This document shows, piece by piece, positions 1,697 through 10,666 of a stretch of DNA of 24,000 nt. Made by a program: the position numbers and the translations under genes. Below the pieces are notes generated by a model, which was not told where the DNA came from, searched no databases, and saw nothing but the letters and a program-made list of their open reading frames with translations. Where the stretch lies: assembly GCA_038327915.1 (NCBI GenBank), contig JBBQLO010000005.1, forward strand, positions 1 to 24,000, in the 5' to 3' direction. The stretch comes from Parcubacteria group bacterium. GTDB lineage: Bacteria; Patescibacteriota; Minisyncoccia; Phycocordibacterales; DATDWN01. The stretch's first letter is position 1. Every line of letters begins with the position of its first letter.

Positions 1697-2068
1697 ATGC
1701 AAACAGATATCAACCAAAAAATCATATTCGTCTACAACGCAGATTCTGATTTTTTTTCCCAAATTAAGGACCTTGTGATAAAAATTACCACACCTGAGAA
1801 ATATACGTGCAACTTATGTGCGGTTACATATGGTCCACTCGAGATGAAAAATGAATGGAAGAACTTTCTCAAAACATTACCACAAGAAAAAGTCTTTATG
1901 CACAGAGATGAATTTCACTCGGCATACCTACATTTGTCAGAAATTCAATTACCAGTGATTTTGAGTGAAGAAAACAACATAATTAAAGTCGTTGTTTCGG
2001 CTGATGAGATCAACCGAGAAAAAACACTTTCTGGCCTTGAACATTTGGTCAGGAGTCGCTTAAAATAA
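1697..2068 (+). CDS. Small conserved-looking hypothetical protein, 123 aa, with a CNLC (CxxC) motif; possibly thioredoxin-like
   Basis: ORF with motif YTCNLCAVTYGPLEMKNEWKNFL. Function not established. Confidence 0.5.
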   Translation: MQTDINQKIIFVYNADSDFFSQIKDLVIKITTPEKYTCNLCAVTYGPLEMKNEWKNFLKTLPQEKVFMHRDEFHSAYLHLSEIQLPVILSEENNIIKVVVSADEINREKTLSGLEHLVRSRLK

Positions 2069-2094
2069 GGATATTCACGTTTATATCAGAGGTA

Positions 2095-2547
2095 TTAGAA
2101 GTTGCAGACTGCTGGAGAACCCCACCAGCCATTTAAGCTCATGTTGTTGGCTACGCCTGTTTTACACCAGCTACCCGTCACAGCTGTATAAACATATAAT
2201 CCATACTGGTCTGTACCCCCACTATTACCAACACCATAGTAATGATCTCCGTCTGCGATTAAATTTGCCGGAATACTGGGTATGTATGTCGGTACAAGAG
2301 CGGCTACTAATGTTGGGTCGGTGAGCAGAACATCGCCGTTTCCGACCGGAGATTGGGGATAGGTACCATATGTACTGTAATACAGAGCCAGCGCATTTTC
2401 AACAGCTTTTATTTCAGTTATTCGTGCAACGTCTTTAGCTTTTGTTCTGGCGGTATTCAATGACGCGAGCACAATTGAAGAAAGTAGACCAATAATGGCA
2501 ATGACCACGAGAAGTTCGATGAGTGTAAAACCACGAGAAGATTTCAT
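2095..2547 (-). CDS. Type IV pilin / pseudopilin-like protein with prepilin N-terminal methylation motif
   Basis: N-terminus MKSSRGFTLIELLVVIAIIGLLSSI: G|F cleavage site, Glu5, hydrophobic helix. Confidence 0.9.
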   Translation of the reverse strand: MKSSRGFTLIELLVVIAIIGLLSSIVLASLNTARTKAKDVARITEIKAVENALALYYSTYGTYPQSPVGNGDVLLTDPTLVAALVPTYIPSIPANLIADGDHYYGVGNSGGTDQYGLYVYTAVTGSWCKTGVANNMSLNGWWGSPAVCNF

Positions 2548-2795
2548 AATTGTTTTGAATATGTGCCGTTAATTGATGGCACCGGATTTTTTGGAGATCC
2601 AGTCCCGTTGTATTTGAAAAATAAAATACCAGCCATACCTAATAAAACTATACAAACCACTATGAGCACTGCATTCACGTATTTTTCAGGTATACCCACC
2701 TTTTCAACAAAACGGAACATGGTTGATTTTTGTTCAACATATGTCTGTTTTTTATATAAACCAATATTTTGTTCATCAAATTCTACGTGTGACAT
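2544..2795 (-). CDS. Small single-pass membrane protein, 83 aa, translationally coupled to the pilin gene
   Basis: ATGA start/stop overlap at 2544-2547. One hydrophobic helix (AVLIVVCIVLLGMAGILFF). Confidence 0.55.
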   Translation of the reverse strand: MSHVEFDEQNIGLYKKQTYVEQKSTMFRFVEKVGIPEKYVNAVLIVVCIVLLGMAGILFFKYNGTGSPKNPVPSINGTYSKQL

Positions 2796-2828
2796 AATAA
2801 TAAGTTTGGTTGTTTTTTTGACCCTACT

Positions 2829-3182
2829 TTATAACGGTAAATCAAGTCCAAAAAATCCAGGTCCGGTAAAGAGGAGGGAAATCAAAACAATTGCAGAGAG
2901 AGTGTGAAGTAAAACAGCATCTCGTGTCAGTGGTGCGACTTTTTTGTTTGCCCAATCGTCAAAACCTATTATAAAAAAACCAAAAAGAGCCGCTATTTGT
3001 GTGTATAGTCCAATGAATAGAAAAATGCCAGAAACAATATAAATAACAGACATCCATTTGTATGGTTTTTTAAAACGTTGTAGGCCTGTAAATACGAGAA
3101 AAGCCCCAACAGCTAGACGTAAAATGCATGGAGCAATAAAGCTATATGTGAGTAGATTTGGAAATACAGAGAGAGGATGCAT
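2829..3182 (-). CDS. DoxX-like small integral membrane protein, 117 aa from the internal ATG
   Basis: Multi-helix hydrophobic protein (LRLAVGAFLVFTGLQRF...). I prefer the ATG at 3182 over the track start at 3245. Confidence 0.55.
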   Translation of the reverse strand: MHPLSVFPNLLTYSFIAPCILRLAVGAFLVFTGLQRFKKPYKWMSVIYIVSGIFLFIGLYTQIAALFGFFIIGFDDWANKKVAPLTRDAVLLHTLSAIVLISLLFTGPGFFGLDLPL

Positions 3183-3285
3183 GCGTATAGTATATGATAT
3201 TTGTATTTTTAGAGCAATAAAAAAGAATAATCTCTGGCTACCCATACATACACATGGTGTCTGTAGGTTGTGCTAGAGTGTGTGT

Positions 3286-3759
3286 ATGAAAAAAGAGGTT
3301 ACCATTCTCCTTCACAACATTCGTAGTGCTCATAATGTTGGGTCTATTTTTCGTACGGCTGATGCGGTGGGAGTGACAAAAATATATCTTTCGGGATACA
3401 CACCCACTCCACTGGACAGATTTGGTTGTGCTCGTAAAGACTTAGCAAAAGTGGCGCTTGGAGCAGAAAAAAGTATTTCATGGGAACAAATTATCGATCC
3501 GAAAAAACTTATAAAAAAATTAAAGAAAGATAATTTTCAGGTAGTAGCTTTTGAACAGTCAGTTCGGGCCATGGATTACAAAAAAGTAAAAATTTCTCAA
3601 TCAGTTCTGGTGCTGGTGGGAAGCGAAGTGGGGGGTATTGAGCAAGAGTTTTTGTCTCTCTGTGATATTGTGGCGGAGATTCCTATGAAAGGGATAAAAG
3701 AGTCACTCAATGTTTCTGTTGCTTTTGGTATTGCTCTTTTTCGAATGTTGGGAGTGTAA
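3286..3759 (+). CDS. SpoU/TrmH-family (SPOUT) RNA 2'-O-methyltransferase
   Basis: Motifs HNVGSIFRTADAVG, LVLVGSEVGGI and ESLNVSVAFGIALF. Confidence 0.85.
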   Translation: MKKEVTILLHNIRSAHNVGSIFRTADAVGVTKIYLSGYTPTPLDRFGCARKDLAKVALGAEKSISWEQIIDPKKLIKKLKKDNFQVVAFEQSVRAMDYKKVKISQSVLVLVGSEVGGIEQEFLSLCDIVAEIPMKGIKESLNVSVAFGIALFRMLGV

Positions 3760-3766
3760 TTCAAAT

Positions 3767-4687
3767 TTAGTATTTTAATTCAGCTACTATTTTTCCAGCG
3801 CCGTCATAAAGAATGATGTCTTCTCTTTCACTTTTCCACAGCGTGCTACTACGTTTCAAATAGACTCGCCATTCTTTAGTGTAGAAATTTGCGTCATTTT
3901 TATGAGTATTTATACATGATGTATAATTTATTTTTGAATAAATAAAATTAGTGCATTCGTAGCTCCAGTTGGCCGGTAGATTTGCTGTTTGAATCTGGCA
4001 AGAAGACATCGAGTTGATGTAATCAAAGCATGCATCGTTAATAACTTGATTGGCGGGAATACTCGAAAGATTTTCATTGCGTGGAGCAGGGCAGTTGGTC
4101 GAGAGATACGGGGTGAAATTTTGAAATTGTGATAAGTAACCCGAACATATATTCACTTTAAAACTTGAGCCGTTTGGTGAGAGACCCGTATCAAGATATA
4201 TAGTGTCGCCAGGGGAGAGTGCCACTGTACTTTCGCTATTTTTTGAATTAGCGAAAAAGAGTGTGGACGCATTAGGAATATTTACAATAACACCGCTTTT
4301 TTTACTTGCCAATGTAAAACCAAGAAGGGGTATGGTGGTGGTAGATTGTTCGTTTTCATGTAAAACAATATATTCTTCCGAAACTGTTTGTGAACGAGAG
4401 ACATATTGAATTAAAATTTGTCCGTAATATTTTGAATGAGATTGGTTTTCTTTTCTGACTTCTTCCGCAACGTCCATTTGTTGTTTGAGAGTATCAACTT
4501 GCGTTTGTGCTGTTTGGATTTGTCCAGCAATACTGGTGTCTGTACTTTTTTGTTCTGTGTAGCTGTTTGATGATTGTGTTGCAGTGGTTGTGATGGTCGG
4601 GTGGATAGCGTTTTTTGCCCCACCAATGAGTCCAACTGCGATGATGCCAAGAATCACTATAATACCTATCCATTCATCTTTTTTCAT
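3767..4687 (-). CDS. Membrane-anchored secreted protein, 306 aa, Cys-rich C-terminus; possible lamin-tail-like domain
   Basis: N-terminal TM helix, Thr/Gln-rich linker, then a beta-rich region (EYIVLHENEQ...LSPGDTIYLDTG). Confidence 0.55.
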   Translation of the reverse strand: MKKDEWIGIIVILGIIAVGLIGGAKNAIHPTITTTATQSSNSYTEQKSTDTSIAGQIQTAQTQVDTLKQQMDVAEEVRKENQSHSKYYGQILIQYVSRSQTVSEEYIVLHENEQSTTTIPLLGFTLASKKSGVIVNIPNASTLFFANSKNSESTVALSPGDTIYLDTGLSPNGSSFKVNICSGYLSQFQNFTPYLSTNCPAPRNENLSSIPANQVINDACFDYINSMSSCQIQTANLPANWSYECTNFIYSKINYTSCINTHKNDANFYTKEWRVYLKRSSTLWKSEREDIILYDGAGKIVAELKY

Positions 4688-4707
4688 ATTGTTATGTTAT
4701 CTGACTA

Positions 4708-5610
4708 TTATACCTGATGTATGTTACAAAAATGAGCACTCCTACTCCCAATTACCTTCCGTGTAGTTATTCCAGAACAACCAGTCTTTAAACATTTTTT
4801 TCCAGTTCGACGATATGCTTTGTGAGAATTTTGAAAACCTCCACGTTCCCCATGTATGTTGCGATAGTCAGACATAGAGTCACCCCCAAGATTGATTCCC
4901 GCGACAAGAATTTTCTTCATCGCAGCCCAGATTTTTTTCCTTTCAGATGCTGTGAGTGAGGACACTCTGCGTTCGGGATGTACGCTTGACGCCCAGAGTA
5001 TCTCATCTGAATAAATATTACCAACGCCAGCAATAACCGATTGGTCCATAAGGACGCTTTTTATTTTTCCACTTTTTTTCGTATTTAGTTTAGATGTAAA
5101 TGTTGGAAAGGGGAGATCGTCGAGTGGTTCTGGTCCGAGACCAGCAAGATCAACAACATCTGCACGTTTGGAAGTTTCAAAAAGAATCACTTTGGCGAAT
5201 TTTCGCATGTCAGAAAAAGCGAGATGTTTGCCGTTTGAAAGAGTAAAAATAAGGTGGATAAATTGGTTAAATGAATCGGAAAGAAGTTTCTCTTCACTTT
5301 TCCACACGCCCGTAGGACTCAATGTGTATTTTCCATACAACAGATGTCCGGTCATTTTCATGTGAATGAGAATAGTTTTATTGCCGGAGAGGTGTATCAA
5401 GACATTTTTCCCGCGACGTTCGGCATTGTTAAATTTTGTTCCGACGACCTCTCGTTTAAATTTTTCAAAATACTTTTTGTTTTTTATGGTATCCGTACGC
5501 TTGTTTGCTGTACGAATGTAGTAATCCGTCCAGACATCAGTAATAGAAAGCCCAACAAGAACTTCATTAAGACCGGTGACGGTGGTGGTGACTTCAGGAA
5601 GTTCAGGCAT
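4708..5610 (-). CDS. mutM: Formamidopyrimidine-DNA glycosylase (Fpg/MutM)
   Basis: N-terminal MPELPEV (catalytic Pro2/Glu3). H2TH region VIAGVGNIYSDEILW. C-terminal Cys/His zinc-finger-like segment. Confidence 0.9.
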   Translation of the reverse strand: MPELPEVTTTVTGLNEVLVGLSITDVWTDYYIRTANKRTDTIKNKKYFEKFKREVVGTKFNNAERRGKNVLIHLSGNKTILIHMKMTGHLLYGKYTLSPTGVWKSEEKLLSDSFNQFIHLIFTLSNGKHLAFSDMRKFAKVILFETSKRADVVDLAGLGPEPLDDLPFPTFTSKLNTKKSGKIKSVLMDQSVIAGVGNIYSDEILWASSVHPERRVSSLTASERKKIWAAMKKILVAGINLGGDSMSDYRNIHGERGGFQNSHKAYRRTGKKCLKTGCSGITTRKVIGSRSAHFCNIHQV

Positions 5611-5633
5611 GTTACTTTGGTTTTATTAGCAAA

Positions 5634-6215
5634 TTACTTGTTTAAATTTTTCAAGGCCGCACGTATTTTTTCTTCTGTGTTTCCTCCTTCCGACTTTTTT
5701 AGAGCCTCTCGTGCGTCGCGTTCAGAATAGCCGAGTGTTTGGAGAGCCAGGAGTGCATCAACATCTGCCGACATGCTCGAAGATTCGTCTTCTTCGCTTC
5801 CTATGCCGAGAGATGTAATTTTGTCTTTTAATTCAAGGACTATTTTCTCCGCCACTTTTTTTCCAATACCAGAGACTTTCGTCAAGTGGCTTATATCGCC
5901 TGTGCCGATGGCTTGTCGAAGGGTACCCAGAGTGGCTACGTTGAGAATCCCCATTGCCGATTTTGGCCCGATACCGGAGACAGTGAGGAGAAGTTCAAAA
6001 AAATTCAACTCTTTGCGATTTTGAAAACCATACAGATCGAGGGCATTTTCGCGTACCGCAAGGTATGTCCAAAAACTAATTTTTGGTTTTTCCTCTTTTG
6101 GCATTTCTGGTAGGAGGGCTGTGTTGGTGTGTATTTTATAGCCTACTCCAGAGACATCGAGAATAACAGACTTAAGGTCTGTGGAGAGAAGAGTGCCTGT
6201 TAAGTGTCCTATCAT
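5634..6215 (-). CDS. ruvA: Holliday junction branch-migration protein RuvA
   Basis: MIGHLTGTL N-terminus. Two helix-hairpin-helix motifs (VSGIGPKSA, VSGIGKKVAEKI). C-terminal domain III. Start moved to 6215. Confidence 0.9.
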   Translation of the reverse strand: MIGHLTGTLLSTDLKSVILDVSGVGYKIHTNTALLPEMPKEEKPKISFWTYLAVRENALDLYGFQNRKELNFFELLLTVSGIGPKSAMGILNVATLGTLRQAIGTGDISHLTKVSGIGKKVAEKIVLELKDKITSLGIGSEEDESSSMSADVDALLALQTLGYSERDAREALKKSEGGNTEEKIRAALKNLNK

Positions 6216-6282
6216 GTTTGCATTGTACCGCATTCACGTCACCCAAGCCAGAATGAATGAAGCGCCAGCAAAAAACTACGAG

Positions 6283-6311
6283 TTGATTTATTTTAGTAAG
6301 TACGCTACTAT
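6283..6311 (+). promoter_or_regulatory. Sigma70-like promoter for rpsT: TTGATT, 17-nt spacer, TACTAT
   Basis: -35 box at 6283-6288 and -10 box at 6306-6311. The ATG at 6318 is only 6 nt after the -10 box. Confidence 0.4.
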
Positions 6312-6317
6312 CTTCCT

Positions 6318-6581
6318 ATGCCAATCACAACATCAGCTAAAAAAGCTCTCCGAGGATCAAAGCGCAAGCGCGCCTTCAATTTGCGTAAAAAAGACATTCT
6401 TGGACAAGCCATTAAAAAAGTGAAAAAACTTGTTGGTGAAAAAAAACTTGCAGAAGCTGCAGAATTTTTCCCGCGAGTTCAAAAAATAATCGACAAGTCA
6501 GTTAAAACAGGTTTACTTAAAATAAACACCGCTTCACGTAAAAAAGCCCGTTTGTCTCGAATGATGACTAAAAATAAGTAG
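6318..6581 (+). CDS. rpsT: 30S ribosomal protein S20
   Basis: 87 aa, very basic, with an MPITTSAKKALRGSKRKR start typical of S20. Confidence 0.85.
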   Translation: MPITTSAKKALRGSKRKRAFNLRKKDILGQAIKKVKKLVGEKKLAEAAEFFPRVQKIIDKSVKTGLLKINTASRKKARLSRMMTKNK

Positions 6582-6608
6582 AAGGGGATAAGTAGTAAAA
6601 ACGCTCAC

Positions 6609-7205
6609 ATGAAAAAATACCTTGCAGAAGCACTCGGTGCATTTACTCTCACTTTTGTTGTGGCTCTTTCTCTCGCTGGTAAGTTCCCTGTATCGACACC
6701 AGTACTCGCGGCTCTCGTACTTGGAATGTTTGTGTACTCACTCGGACATATTTCTGGTACACACATTAACCCAGCGGTGACTATAGGCGCATGGTCAATT
6801 AAAAAAATAACCACGGTAGACGCCGTGGTGTATGTAGTTGCTCAGTGTGTCGGAGCACTTCTTGCTTTTGGCCTCGCCACCTTAGTGGGAGTCAGTGCAA
6901 CTAGTAGTTATATTGTTGCAGGTAATACTCTCGGTATTGGTCTTGCTGAAATGTTCGGGACTTTTTTCTTTACCTTTGGTATTGCCTCAGTTATGTACGG
7001 AAGGACACCAAGCCAGCTTTCGGGAGTTGTTGTTGGAGGCTCGCTCCTTCTTGGCATCAGCATTGCCGCCTTACTCGGTTCAAACGGAATTCTCAACCCC
7101 GCCGTTGCACTCGGTATCGGATCAGTGAGTTTTATGTACCTCTTTGCTCCTATTGTAGGTTCAATCGTAGGTATGAATGTCTATAAGTACTTAGGAAATA
7201 TTTAG
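6609..7205 (+). CDS. MIP-family channel (aquaporin/glycerol-facilitator-like)
   Basis: Two NPA boxes (HINPAVT and LNPAVALG) in a six-helix hydrophobic protein. Confidence 0.85.
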   Translation: MKKYLAEALGAFTLTFVVALSLAGKFPVSTPVLAALVLGMFVYSLGHISGTHINPAVTIGAWSIKKITTVDAVVYVVAQCVGALLAFGLATLVGVSATSSYIVAGNTLGIGLAEMFGTFFFTFGIASVMYGRTPSQLSGVVVGGSLLLGISIAALLGSNGILNPAVALGIGSVSFMYLFAPIVGSIVGMNVYKYLGNI

Positions 7206-7224
7206 GATAGGTGCTAATTTCATT

Positions 7225-7296
7225 GCCCTCGTCGTTCAACGGATAGGACACTGGCCTGCGAAGCTGGAAATACAGGTTCGATTCCTGTCGAGAGCA
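7225..7296 (+). tRNA. tRNA-Arg, anticodon GCG; no encoded CCA
   Basis: Manual cloverleaf. Acceptor gccctcg/cgagagc has one C3:A70 mismatch. D-arm gttc/ggac. Anticodon loop is cuGCGaa. T-arm acagg-ttcgatt-cctgt. Discriminator A. Confidence 0.8.
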
Positions 7297-7568
7297 CAAA
7301 ATGAGTTTACGAATTTTTGTGCTCTCGAAGTAAGAGCATGTTATGCTCTTACGTCAGGAATCGAAAATCTGTGATAGTTTTCTTGAGTGTAGTCACGAAA
7401 AGAAAACAGAACAGATGTACAGTTCCTGTAAGGAAAGATTCCTGTCCTGTAAGGAATCGAAAAGCGGAGCGGGTACCAATTGAGTGCAATTGGTCGCGAG
7501 CTGCGGACACGACAAAAATTTTTGACGGAAAATTTTTAGTTGTGGACGATTCCTGTCAGGAATCGACA
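7279..7568. repeat. Cluster of direct and inverted copies of the tRNA T-arm/3' acceptor sequence
   Basis: Direct copies of (c)gattcctgtc at 7437-7446 and 7547-7557 (original at 7279-7289). Inverted copies of (c)aggaatcg at 7355-7363, 7452-7460 and 7557-7565. 13-bp perfect hairpin 7289-7301/7315-7327 uses the tRNA 3' end. Confidence 0.7.
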
Positions 7569-7725
7569 GTTCTGTATAAAATCTACATGAGGCTACAGAT
7601 CATATGTCAAAATAATGCACATTGGAAAATAGTGCTAGAGGAGAGAGATTTTATGTTTCTTTTCGCTTACGCGGTCCAAAACAATCTAACTCACACTATT
7701 TTTCAATGTACTTTTGTCATATGAC

Positions 7726-8160
7726 CTATAGCCTCATAGAGACTTTCAATAATACTTTAAAATAAGAGCGTCTGTTTCGCTTTTTTAAGCTCATCAGTCG
7801 GAGTACACACTCCGAGACAGATGGGGTGTTTGTAGCACCTCCAGTTTTGGAAACAGCAGTTGGACTGTTTCCTGTAAACATGGTCACGTCGTCCCACCAA
7901 CTTGTGGAAAGAACTATAGCCCAATGCTTTTGATAACAACACGGGCTTTTTTTCCAGACGCACTCGTGAGCACACTGCCCCACGCCAGTGGGTTGTGTCG
8001 TGCCGGGTGCTGGTCGCAGTGAGCTGGATCCGAACACCCACCATTCAGGCCTGGTGGGTGCTGTTCCTTGACCGAGGTACTGCGCCATGTAGCCAGCCTC
8101 TTTCAAAGCCTCCACAATTTTTTCGGCATTTGTATGCCGGACCCTAATTTTTCTTGTCAC
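7726..8160 (-). CDS. Questionable 144-aa ORF with GTG start; the N-terminal part is plausible, the C-terminal part reads through a non-coding repeat and the hammerhead
   Basis: GTGA start/stop overlap with the upstream 57-aa ORF. However, residues from about 80 onward cover the repeat at 7845-7916 (out of frame relative to its other copy) and the ribozyme. Confidence 0.3.
   Translation of the reverse strand: MTRKIRVRHTNAEKIVEALKEAGYMAQYLGQGTAPTRPEWWVFGSSSLRPAPGTTQPTGVGQCAHECVWKKSPCCYQKHWAIVLSTSWWDDVTMFTGNSPTAVSKTGGATNTPSVSECVLRLMSLKKRNRRSYFKVLLKVSMRL
7771..7821 (-). ncRNA. Type III hammerhead self-cleaving ribozyme
   Basis: Minus strand reads UCUGUC|UCGGAGU-GUGU-ACUCCGA-CUGAUGA-GCUU-AAAA-AAGC-GAA-ACAGA. 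Full core present (C3-A9, G12-A14, A15.1:U16.1, C17). Stem I is 7 bp, stem II is 4 bp starting G10.1:C11.1, and stem III is 5 bp and open. Predicted cleavage lies between 7816 and 7815. Confidence 0.85.
7845..7916 (-). repeat. 3' module, copy 1: TAGTTCTYY...GTTGG...hairpin GGAAACAG/CTGTTTCC...ACTGGAGG
   Basis: About 70 nt alignable with 10405-10476. Confidence 0.6.
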
Positions 8161-8330
8161 TTTCTCTTTCCTAGGGGCAGTAATACCCCCTTGCCAATCC
8201 CTGCCAATATAAAAGCGATTGAGGCGAAGAGAATTCCTTCACCCACATTGACGGGTTGCCCCATCAATTTTTCTCCAATTAGGTATCCTGCGGTTAAGCA
8301 GGAAAAAATAGCTAACAAAAAAATTCTCAT
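8157..8330 (-). CDS. Small two-helix membrane protein, 57 aa
   Basis: ATG at 8330 preceded by CUCUGGGAGGGGUGUAGG. Two hydrophobic segments. The stop overlaps the next GTG start. Confidence 0.5.
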   Translation of the reverse strand: MRIFLLAIFSCLTAGYLIGEKLMGQPVNVGEGILFASIAFILAGIGKGVLLPLGKRK

Positions 8331-10253: not shown

Positions 10254-10403
10254 TCCGCCCCCTCCCAGAGGCTTTTGCACATTGGTCTGCCGACCAGTCT
10301 CAATTTCAAGCCTTCGCTTTGGTTGAGACCACGCACCTTATTCCTATCAGCTTTCGAATTAATTCGTTAGCTGAATAAGAAGGGGGACTCGGTAGTGAAC
10401 CGT
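10254..10403 (-). promoter_or_regulatory. Structured 5' leader, copy B; its cognate start codon is lost
   Basis: Same blocks as copy A, with a 32-nt variable insert (10338-10369). ATT replaces the ATG seen in copy A. Followed by a possible 13-codon TTG uORF (10208-10249) and a 12-bp hairpin (10198-10241). Confidence 0.6.
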
Positions 10404-10404
10404 G

Positions 10405-10476
10405 TCCCCCAGTTTGGAAACAGTGGTTGGACTGTTTTCTGAAAACTACTCCTGCCAACTCAGAAAAAGAACTACC
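10405..10476 (-). repeat. 3' module, copy 2
   Basis: Begins at the TAG stop of the 64-aa ORF. Contains hairpin GAAAACAG/CTGTTTCC and then ACTGGGGGA. Confidence 0.6.
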
Positions 10477-10666
10477 TCCCGAAAAAGAACTTTCTTACTG
10501 TCGGTGTCATCCACCAGCAGCATCTCAGTTCCCACTCTGAATAATCTAGGAGGGCCTCCTCCACCTCTGCCTGGTTTTGATAGCCGTCCACTAAGGGCGG
10601 CCCTCCAAGACATTCTGGTCGCCCATATCTCCACCCTTCTTTTAACATACTAATAAACATCTTCAT
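10472..10666 (-). CDS. Small hypothetical protein, 64 aa
   Basis: ATG preceded by GAGGAAAGAGGAAAAAA. The SD can pair with an upstream CCUCG segment. Confidence 0.4.
   Translation of the reverse strand: MKMFISMLKEGWRYGRPECLGGPPLVDGYQNQAEVEEALLDYSEWELRCCWWMTPTVRKFFFGR

Follow-up and report, generated by a model that had tools for sequence, protein, structure and literature searches.

The window analyzed here is a stretch of 24,000 nucleotides on contig C5 of a genome of CPR-like size (798 kb in 47 contigs, 91% complete). Between a tRNA-Arg gene (7225-7297, plus strand) and position ~11184 lies an island with a GC content of 46%, compared with 37 to 39% in its flanks. All ORFs of the island are on the minus strand, about half of its length is non-coding, and searches of every island ORF against Pfam and PHROGs returned no family. 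These ~3.6 kb appear to be foreign and to be transcribed on the minus strand, probably as a single transcript. A near-consensus extended -10 promoter (TTGACA, 17-nt spacer, TG, TATGAT) is found at 11258-11230 on the minus strand, just upstream of the conserved 5′ region of the island, and this promoter-like site is likely the start of the island transcript. The features around the coding region are as follows.

8157-8330, minus strand: upstream 57-codon ORF, from ATG 8330 (79 aa if read from ATG 8396), with a TGA that overlaps the GTG of the next gene
7832-7916, minus strand: module B, the hammerhead-linked copy, 85 nt, a conserved RNA module of the 3′-UTR that starts with a stop codon (TAGTTCTTT)
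7769-7823, minus strand: type III hammerhead ribozyme, with predicted cleavage after GUC, between 7816 and 7815
7578-7746, minus strand: long near-perfect hairpin 3′ of the ribozyme (z -9.6), the core of which is conserved in a related genome (G008)
10399-10478, minus strand: second copy of module B, which starts at the TAG (10474-10472) of a 64-aa ORF; after it comes a leader module, not a hammerhead

A preliminary description of this DNA centered on a 144-aa ORF with a GTG start (7726-8160, minus strand), and the ORF is present as stated there. Its GTG (8160-8158) and the TGA stop of the upstream ORF (8159-8157) share a 4-nt GTGA overlap, no stop interrupts frame 0 before 7726, and the ORF reads through both a repeat that belongs to module B (real, at 7845-7916 and 10405-10476) and a hammerhead (7823-7769) that matches RF00008. 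The 57-codon ORF upstream encodes two hydrophobic segments and has a strong Shine-Dalgarno sequence (GGGAGGGG); Pfam and PHROG searches placed it in no family.

Exhaustive phmmer searches of 1.84e9 representative proteins revealed relatives for residues 1 to 40 only of the 144-aa ORF. Residues 1 to 40 match P0001 (114 aa) at 72% identity (E 1e-7), residues 2 to 35 match P0003 (95 aa) at 62% identity, and the GTG start agrees with the N termini of the homologues. Past this N-terminal part, P0001 and P0003 continue with a Cys-rich loop and then a WG..TSASG..AHK segment. The +1 frame of the window, translated from 8099 to 7914 (P0004), matches residues 49 to 83 of P0001 (E 3e-11) and residues 41 to 86 of P0003 (E 3e-8) by BLASTP, and when both pieces, one from frame 0 and one from the +1 frame, are aligned jointly with the homologues, they cover these from end to end. 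The single-frame architecture recurs in two further homologues, P0007 and P0008, and these four proteins constitute the homologue set. They are orphan proteins of 93 to 114 aa from metagenomes, encoded on GC-rich, phage-like contigs. The N-terminal beta-alpha-beta segment of the protein family (IRVRH..NAEK..YLG.GTA) is thus present in the window in frame 0, at 62 to 72% identity, and the C-terminal segment (GGC.DP..C...WG..TSASG) is present in the +1 frame only; the C-terminal piece is just 42 to 54% identical to the homologues and ends 6 to 10 codons earlier. An uninterrupted single frame, common to the four homologues, is absent from the window gene, in which a +1 break falls within 8058-8046.

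8059-8160, minus strand: gene segment A, frame 0, GTG + codons 1-34, homologous to the N-terminal parts of P0001, P0003, P0007, and P0008
8046-8058, minus strand: frame-shift stretch of 13 nt, inside which the frame must move +1; its CCC-A at 8058-8055 is a possible slip site for tRNA-Pro
8035-8060, no strand assigned: perfect 9-bp hairpin with an 8-nt loop (arms 8060-8052 and 8043-8035)
7914-8045, minus strand: gene segment B, +1 frame, 43 codons, ending at TAG 7916-7914, homologous to the C-terminal halves of the protein family
7726-7913, minus strand: frame-0 tail of the 144-aa ORF, codons 83 to 144, without a homologue and conserved as DNA

An AlphaFold model of the protein family (pLDDT 71) consists of one small alpha/beta domain with strands contributed by both halves, which argues that the halves belong to one protein. 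A fold search with this model gave no match below E 0.1, its topology being generic and PII/ferredoxin-like, and a PDB sequence search with the family gave none. Genome contigs and viral contigs, searched for related loci with the family alignment, yielded none. The 144-aa ORF is very probably a chimera: a gene of ~81 codons with a one-base break, the true stop of which is TAG 7916-7914, read on into RNA elements that occupy its 3′-UTR.

The frame-0 tail is read at all only because the frame is broken, and comparison with related sequences identifies it as non-coding. When the 144-aa ORF was searched by tblastn in 60 relatives, only its ribozyme part was matched, with stops in frame; in G008, the DNA equivalent to the tail matches over the ribozyme only and has three TAA codons in that frame. 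The first 81 residues of frame 0, used as the query of a word-indexed search, gave no match. One option in the preliminary description was that the C-terminal half is an artifact driven by GC content. That half is indeed non-coding, but the long frame is not just a matter of base composition; the cause is the +1 break in a real gene. Homologues that conserve all 144 aa, for which the preliminary description had proposed to look, were not found, and the homologues show the opposite. That the entire 144-aa ORF is a genuine protein overlapping RNA elements is scarcely credible, despite its uninterrupted frame and plausible coupled start. Frame 0 has no homologue over residues 41 to 144, and residues 82 to 144 come from RNA modules that are conserved as DNA and elsewhere have stops in frame. 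One weak match, of residues 75 to 111 to the repeat protein P0002 (E 2e-4), would favor a full-length protein, but it is solitary and borderline, it involves a low-complexity repeat, and we judged it to be due to chance.

Over ~120 nt (8040-7920, within 8090-7920, minus strand; GC 54%), all three minus-strand frames are free of stops, which is why the true frame escapes ORF finders. The 19 host ORFs in the window all end in stops other than TGA, and we therefore also considered an alternative genetic code but rejected it: genome-wide, 60 of 450 long ORFs (13%) end in TGA, and no tRNA-UCA was found in the genome. The code is therefore standard.

The position of the break follows from the codons shared with the protein family. 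The last shared frame-0 codon is GCA 8061-8059 and the first shared +1 codon is AAT 8045-8043, which places one extra base within 8058-8046. This stretch corresponds to the 5′ arm and loop of the perfect 9-bp hairpin, a structure that had been recognized previously and does exist, although its position had been given ~4 nt away from where it lies. Read in the +1 frame, the 3′ arm of the hairpin codes for the conserved N-G-G-C motif; the 5′ arm falls in a variable linker. Seven such hairpins occur in the 24 kb; when overlapping ones are counted, there are 11 in the real sequence versus ~1.2 per shuffle. Like other frameshifted genes, whether pseudogenes or products of assembly indels, the locus presents one protein family in two successive frames, with an over-long frame-0 tail that lacks relatives. 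It differs in that the break falls within a perfect hairpin that has conserved coding sequence as its 3′ arm. This coincidence suggests a templated (quasi-palindrome) mutation, in which a template switch may have both perfected the hairpin and added the extra base.

We consider a real mutation in a decaying island to be, on balance, the probable cause of the break. An assembly error is a possible but rather unlikely cause. A Logan contig of the same organism covers the 280-aa island gene only and stops short of the break; an identical 280-aa gene is present in run SRR19962015. Ranked least likely, and improbable in our estimation, is a +1 slip, either tolerated or programmed. At CCC-N sites, tRNA-Pro is prone to slip by +1, and a frameshift of this kind would have the only tRNA-Pro (UGG) slip at 8058-8055 from CCC to CCA, with which it pairs perfectly, thereby returning to the ancestral frame, so that some 81-aa protein is made. 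The resemblance to programmed +1 frameshifting, as in prfB or by tRNA-Pro at CCC-N, extends to the CCC-A inside the break stretch, to the single tRNA-Pro(UGG) that Aragorn detects in the genome, and to the coincidence of the break with the perfect hairpin. However, all four homologues are encoded in one frame, and the shift is therefore not conserved. The A site holds neither a stop nor a slow codon (its codon, ACC, is not rare), no correctly spaced Shine-Dalgarno sequence is present (the upstream AAGGA is 6 nt away, versus the 3-nt spacing of prfB), and the hairpin includes the slip site rather than lying downstream of it. We accordingly give a programmed or tolerated shift little weight as a reading of the gene, and we regard the chimera with a plain one-base break as the better account.

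With the frame restored, the gene ends where module B begins. A covariance model finds the module at 7832-7920 and 10399-10478 (77 and 85 bits), and the +1 frame stop, TAG 7916-7914, is its first triplet. The same TAG is the stop of the upstream gene in three other copies of module B, one in the window and two in G008. At G008:C5 and G008:C9, the module begins at the TAG of a 369-aa and a 111-aa ORF, respectively, 92 nt before a hammerhead; a third G008 hammerhead lies 93 nt after the TAG of a 181-aa ORF, and the distance from TAG 7916 to the hammerhead at 7823 in the window is likewise 93 nt. As the TAG opens module B and the hammerhead follows 93 nt on, both are 3′-UTR elements of the last cistron. 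The earlier proposal that the repeat is kept as nucleic acid and not as protein is borne out by these copies. It had drawn on a contrast between the two copies in the window: the second copy does start at a stop codon, but the contrast dissolves, since the hammerhead-linked copy also starts at one in the restored frame.

Module B forms an 8-bp hairpin with a loop, CCAAC, that is able to pair with an upstream GTTGG; the paired positions of this pseudoknot are invariant among the copies. Strong copies number four in 151 genomes, in addition to one decayed copy (G004) and one weak match (G072), and a scan of JGI metagenomes recovered only the source contig of G008 itself. In G004:C2 (L039, 1440-1580, minus strand), a 223-aa ORF precedes a decayed module-B-like hairpin, and after this hairpin comes a decayed hammerhead (CTGATGAG..CGAAAA); the module-ribozyme pair is thus found in a third genome. 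Module B is a rare RNA module that embeds a stop codon, and it may act as a 3′-end stabilizer.

The hammerhead scores 44.6 bits against RF00008 (E 1e-7), which is 3.9 bits below the gathering score of 48.5; all 16 hammerhead copies in genomes of the host's family fall below this cut-off. The invariant core, as read from the sequence, is entirely present: CUGAUGA, GAAA, the A15.1-U16.1 pair, and the GUC cleavage triplet. Covariation supports the three helices, with stem III open, as compensatory changes occur in 16 of 18 canonical pairs across 18 aligned copies; 90.7% of the cells in the alignment are paired, and none of 500 shuffles reached the observed score. By these sequence criteria, the hammerhead is genuine. 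Of 63 genomes of the same family, 8 have additional hammerheads, and two sister families have them as well. In a set of 20 other distinct hammerheads, 17 follow an ORF of at least 50 aa on the same strand that ends no more than 250 nt upstream, 15 of these within 140 nt, and most related hammerheads have stops 30 to 140 nt before the ribozyme. Three other ORFs span a hammerhead, and each overlaps an ORF of at least 50 aa that ends upstream of the ribozyme.

The same genome encodes a second hammerhead (G000:C14:18577-18631; L003 1499-1553, minus strand; 34.5 bits), ~450 nt downstream of an IS3-like transposase gene; in its stem I, a G-C pair has become A-U, a compensatory change. This copy, too, has spurious ORFs, one of 79 aa spanning it and one of 173 aa ending inside it. 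In a genome of a sister family (L018, G041:C2:139500-147000), six hammerhead motifs lie on one strand within ~3.6 kb, between small ORFs; five were found at an E value of 0.002 or less with RF00008 and the sixth, at ~3942-3996, by motif only.

Cleavage by the window ribozyme would most likely fall between 7816 and 7815 of the transcript and would detach the hairpin at 7746-7578 from the mRNA. This hairpin is terminator-like, as a U-run follows its core in G008. Structured module B, bearing a 2′,3′-cyclic phosphate, would then form the 3′ end of the mRNA. If the break is real, ribosomes in frame 0 would meet the cut end immediately after codon 115 (GUC), where tmRNA, encoded in the genome (72.8 bits), could rescue them. 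A message without a stop is the textbook substrate of tmRNA-SmpB, and a stopless message cut by the ribozyme would be such a substrate; what differs from trans-translation as a designed outcome is that the missing stop here comes from a broken frame and not from a conserved design.

The second option in the preliminary description, a non-stop mRNA as a regulatory arrangement, finds no support. As a device, it would require that the stop be absent on purpose, that the ribozyme cut the message, and that tmRNA tag the product. The coincidence of the cleavage site with the end of codon 115, in a frame open up to that point, and the presence of tmRNA in the genome are what it has in its favor. Nevertheless, past residue 40 it is the +1 frame, and not frame 0, that has homologues and a conserved stop, none of the four homologues has a frame that spans a hammerhead, a stop codon precedes the hammerhead at related loci, and three in-frame TAA codons interrupt the same stretch in G008. 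We therefore consider a designed non-stop message highly improbable. The broken frame leaves room for a non-stop mRNA only as a by-product, not as a conserved, designed switch. A variant that joins slippage to rescue is a long shot: a real +1 break would be partly bypassed by tRNA-Pro slipping at CCC-A to yield the 81-aa protein, with termination at TAG 7916, and unshifted ribosomes would continue to the cut end for disposal by tmRNA. If it were true, the hammerhead would double as a fail-safe against the out-of-frame product.

The island has a relative in G008. The related 6-kb island (L016, G008:C5:30500-40500, at 1813-7995) shares the 5′ region, module B, the hammerhead, and the 3′ hairpin end but has different cargo, namely a DEAH/HA2 helicase gene between two hammerheads and two orphan genes. 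Its flanks are unrelated to those of the window island, with a tRNA-Asp gene ~950 nt from its 5′ end and CYTH and NADAR genes after its 3′ end, which implies either a mobile element or independent acquisition. A DEAH/HA2-type helicase gene is present on the contig of P0003 as well, and that of P0007 has a ThyX gene, which indicates a phage-like gene pool of 51 to 58% GC. The homologue contigs that were scanned for hammerheads (L020 and L021) contain none, and the link of gene to ribozyme is therefore seen only in the window.

Beyond the 3′ hairpin, the window also contains two tandem copies of a structured repeat of ~105 nt (7333-7557, minus strand). It occurs one to five times per genome, and the bulk of the DNA matches in 31 of the 36 same-family genomes that were searched come from it. 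A closing stem (GGAATC/GATTCC) and two long hairpins are common to seven copies, drawn from as many genomes, with compensatory changes in 12 of 37 predicted pairs and without an Rfam match. The repeat is a candidate lineage-specific non-coding RNA or REP/MITE-like element.

Clustered type III hammerheads flank genes in prophages and mobile islands, and those of prophages were shown to cut polycistronic RNAs in vitro (Perreault et al. 2011, PMC3088659). The window ribozyme resembles these in its canonical core, its intergenic or 3′-UTR site, its location on the coding strand, and its setting in a foreign, variable island; the related islands in G008 and G041 hold two to six ribozymes between small genes, and the presumed common role is the cutting of long transcripts. 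The window island differs in that its only ribozyme is terminal and comes after an 85-nt module, specific to the element, in which the stop codon is embedded, and in that the host is a CPR-like genome of ~0.8 Mb. The layout of stop, module, and ribozyme identifies the ribozyme and the repeat as 3′-UTR elements of a small foreign island, as for the prophage hammerheads reported in 2011 (PMC3088659). What is new here is the two-frame homology, which accounts for the 144-aa ORF; the overall arrangement is ordinary.

A gene caller would report at this locus a hypothetical protein of 144 aa, two-thirds of it artifact, which would mask the ribozyme and a conserved 3′-UTR module. Once the frame break is recognized, gene, stop, RNA module, and hammerhead again follow one another in the usual order, and an exotic trans-translation switch loses its case. 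The locus then stands as one more hammerhead-bearing foreign island in ultra-small, CPR-like genomes.
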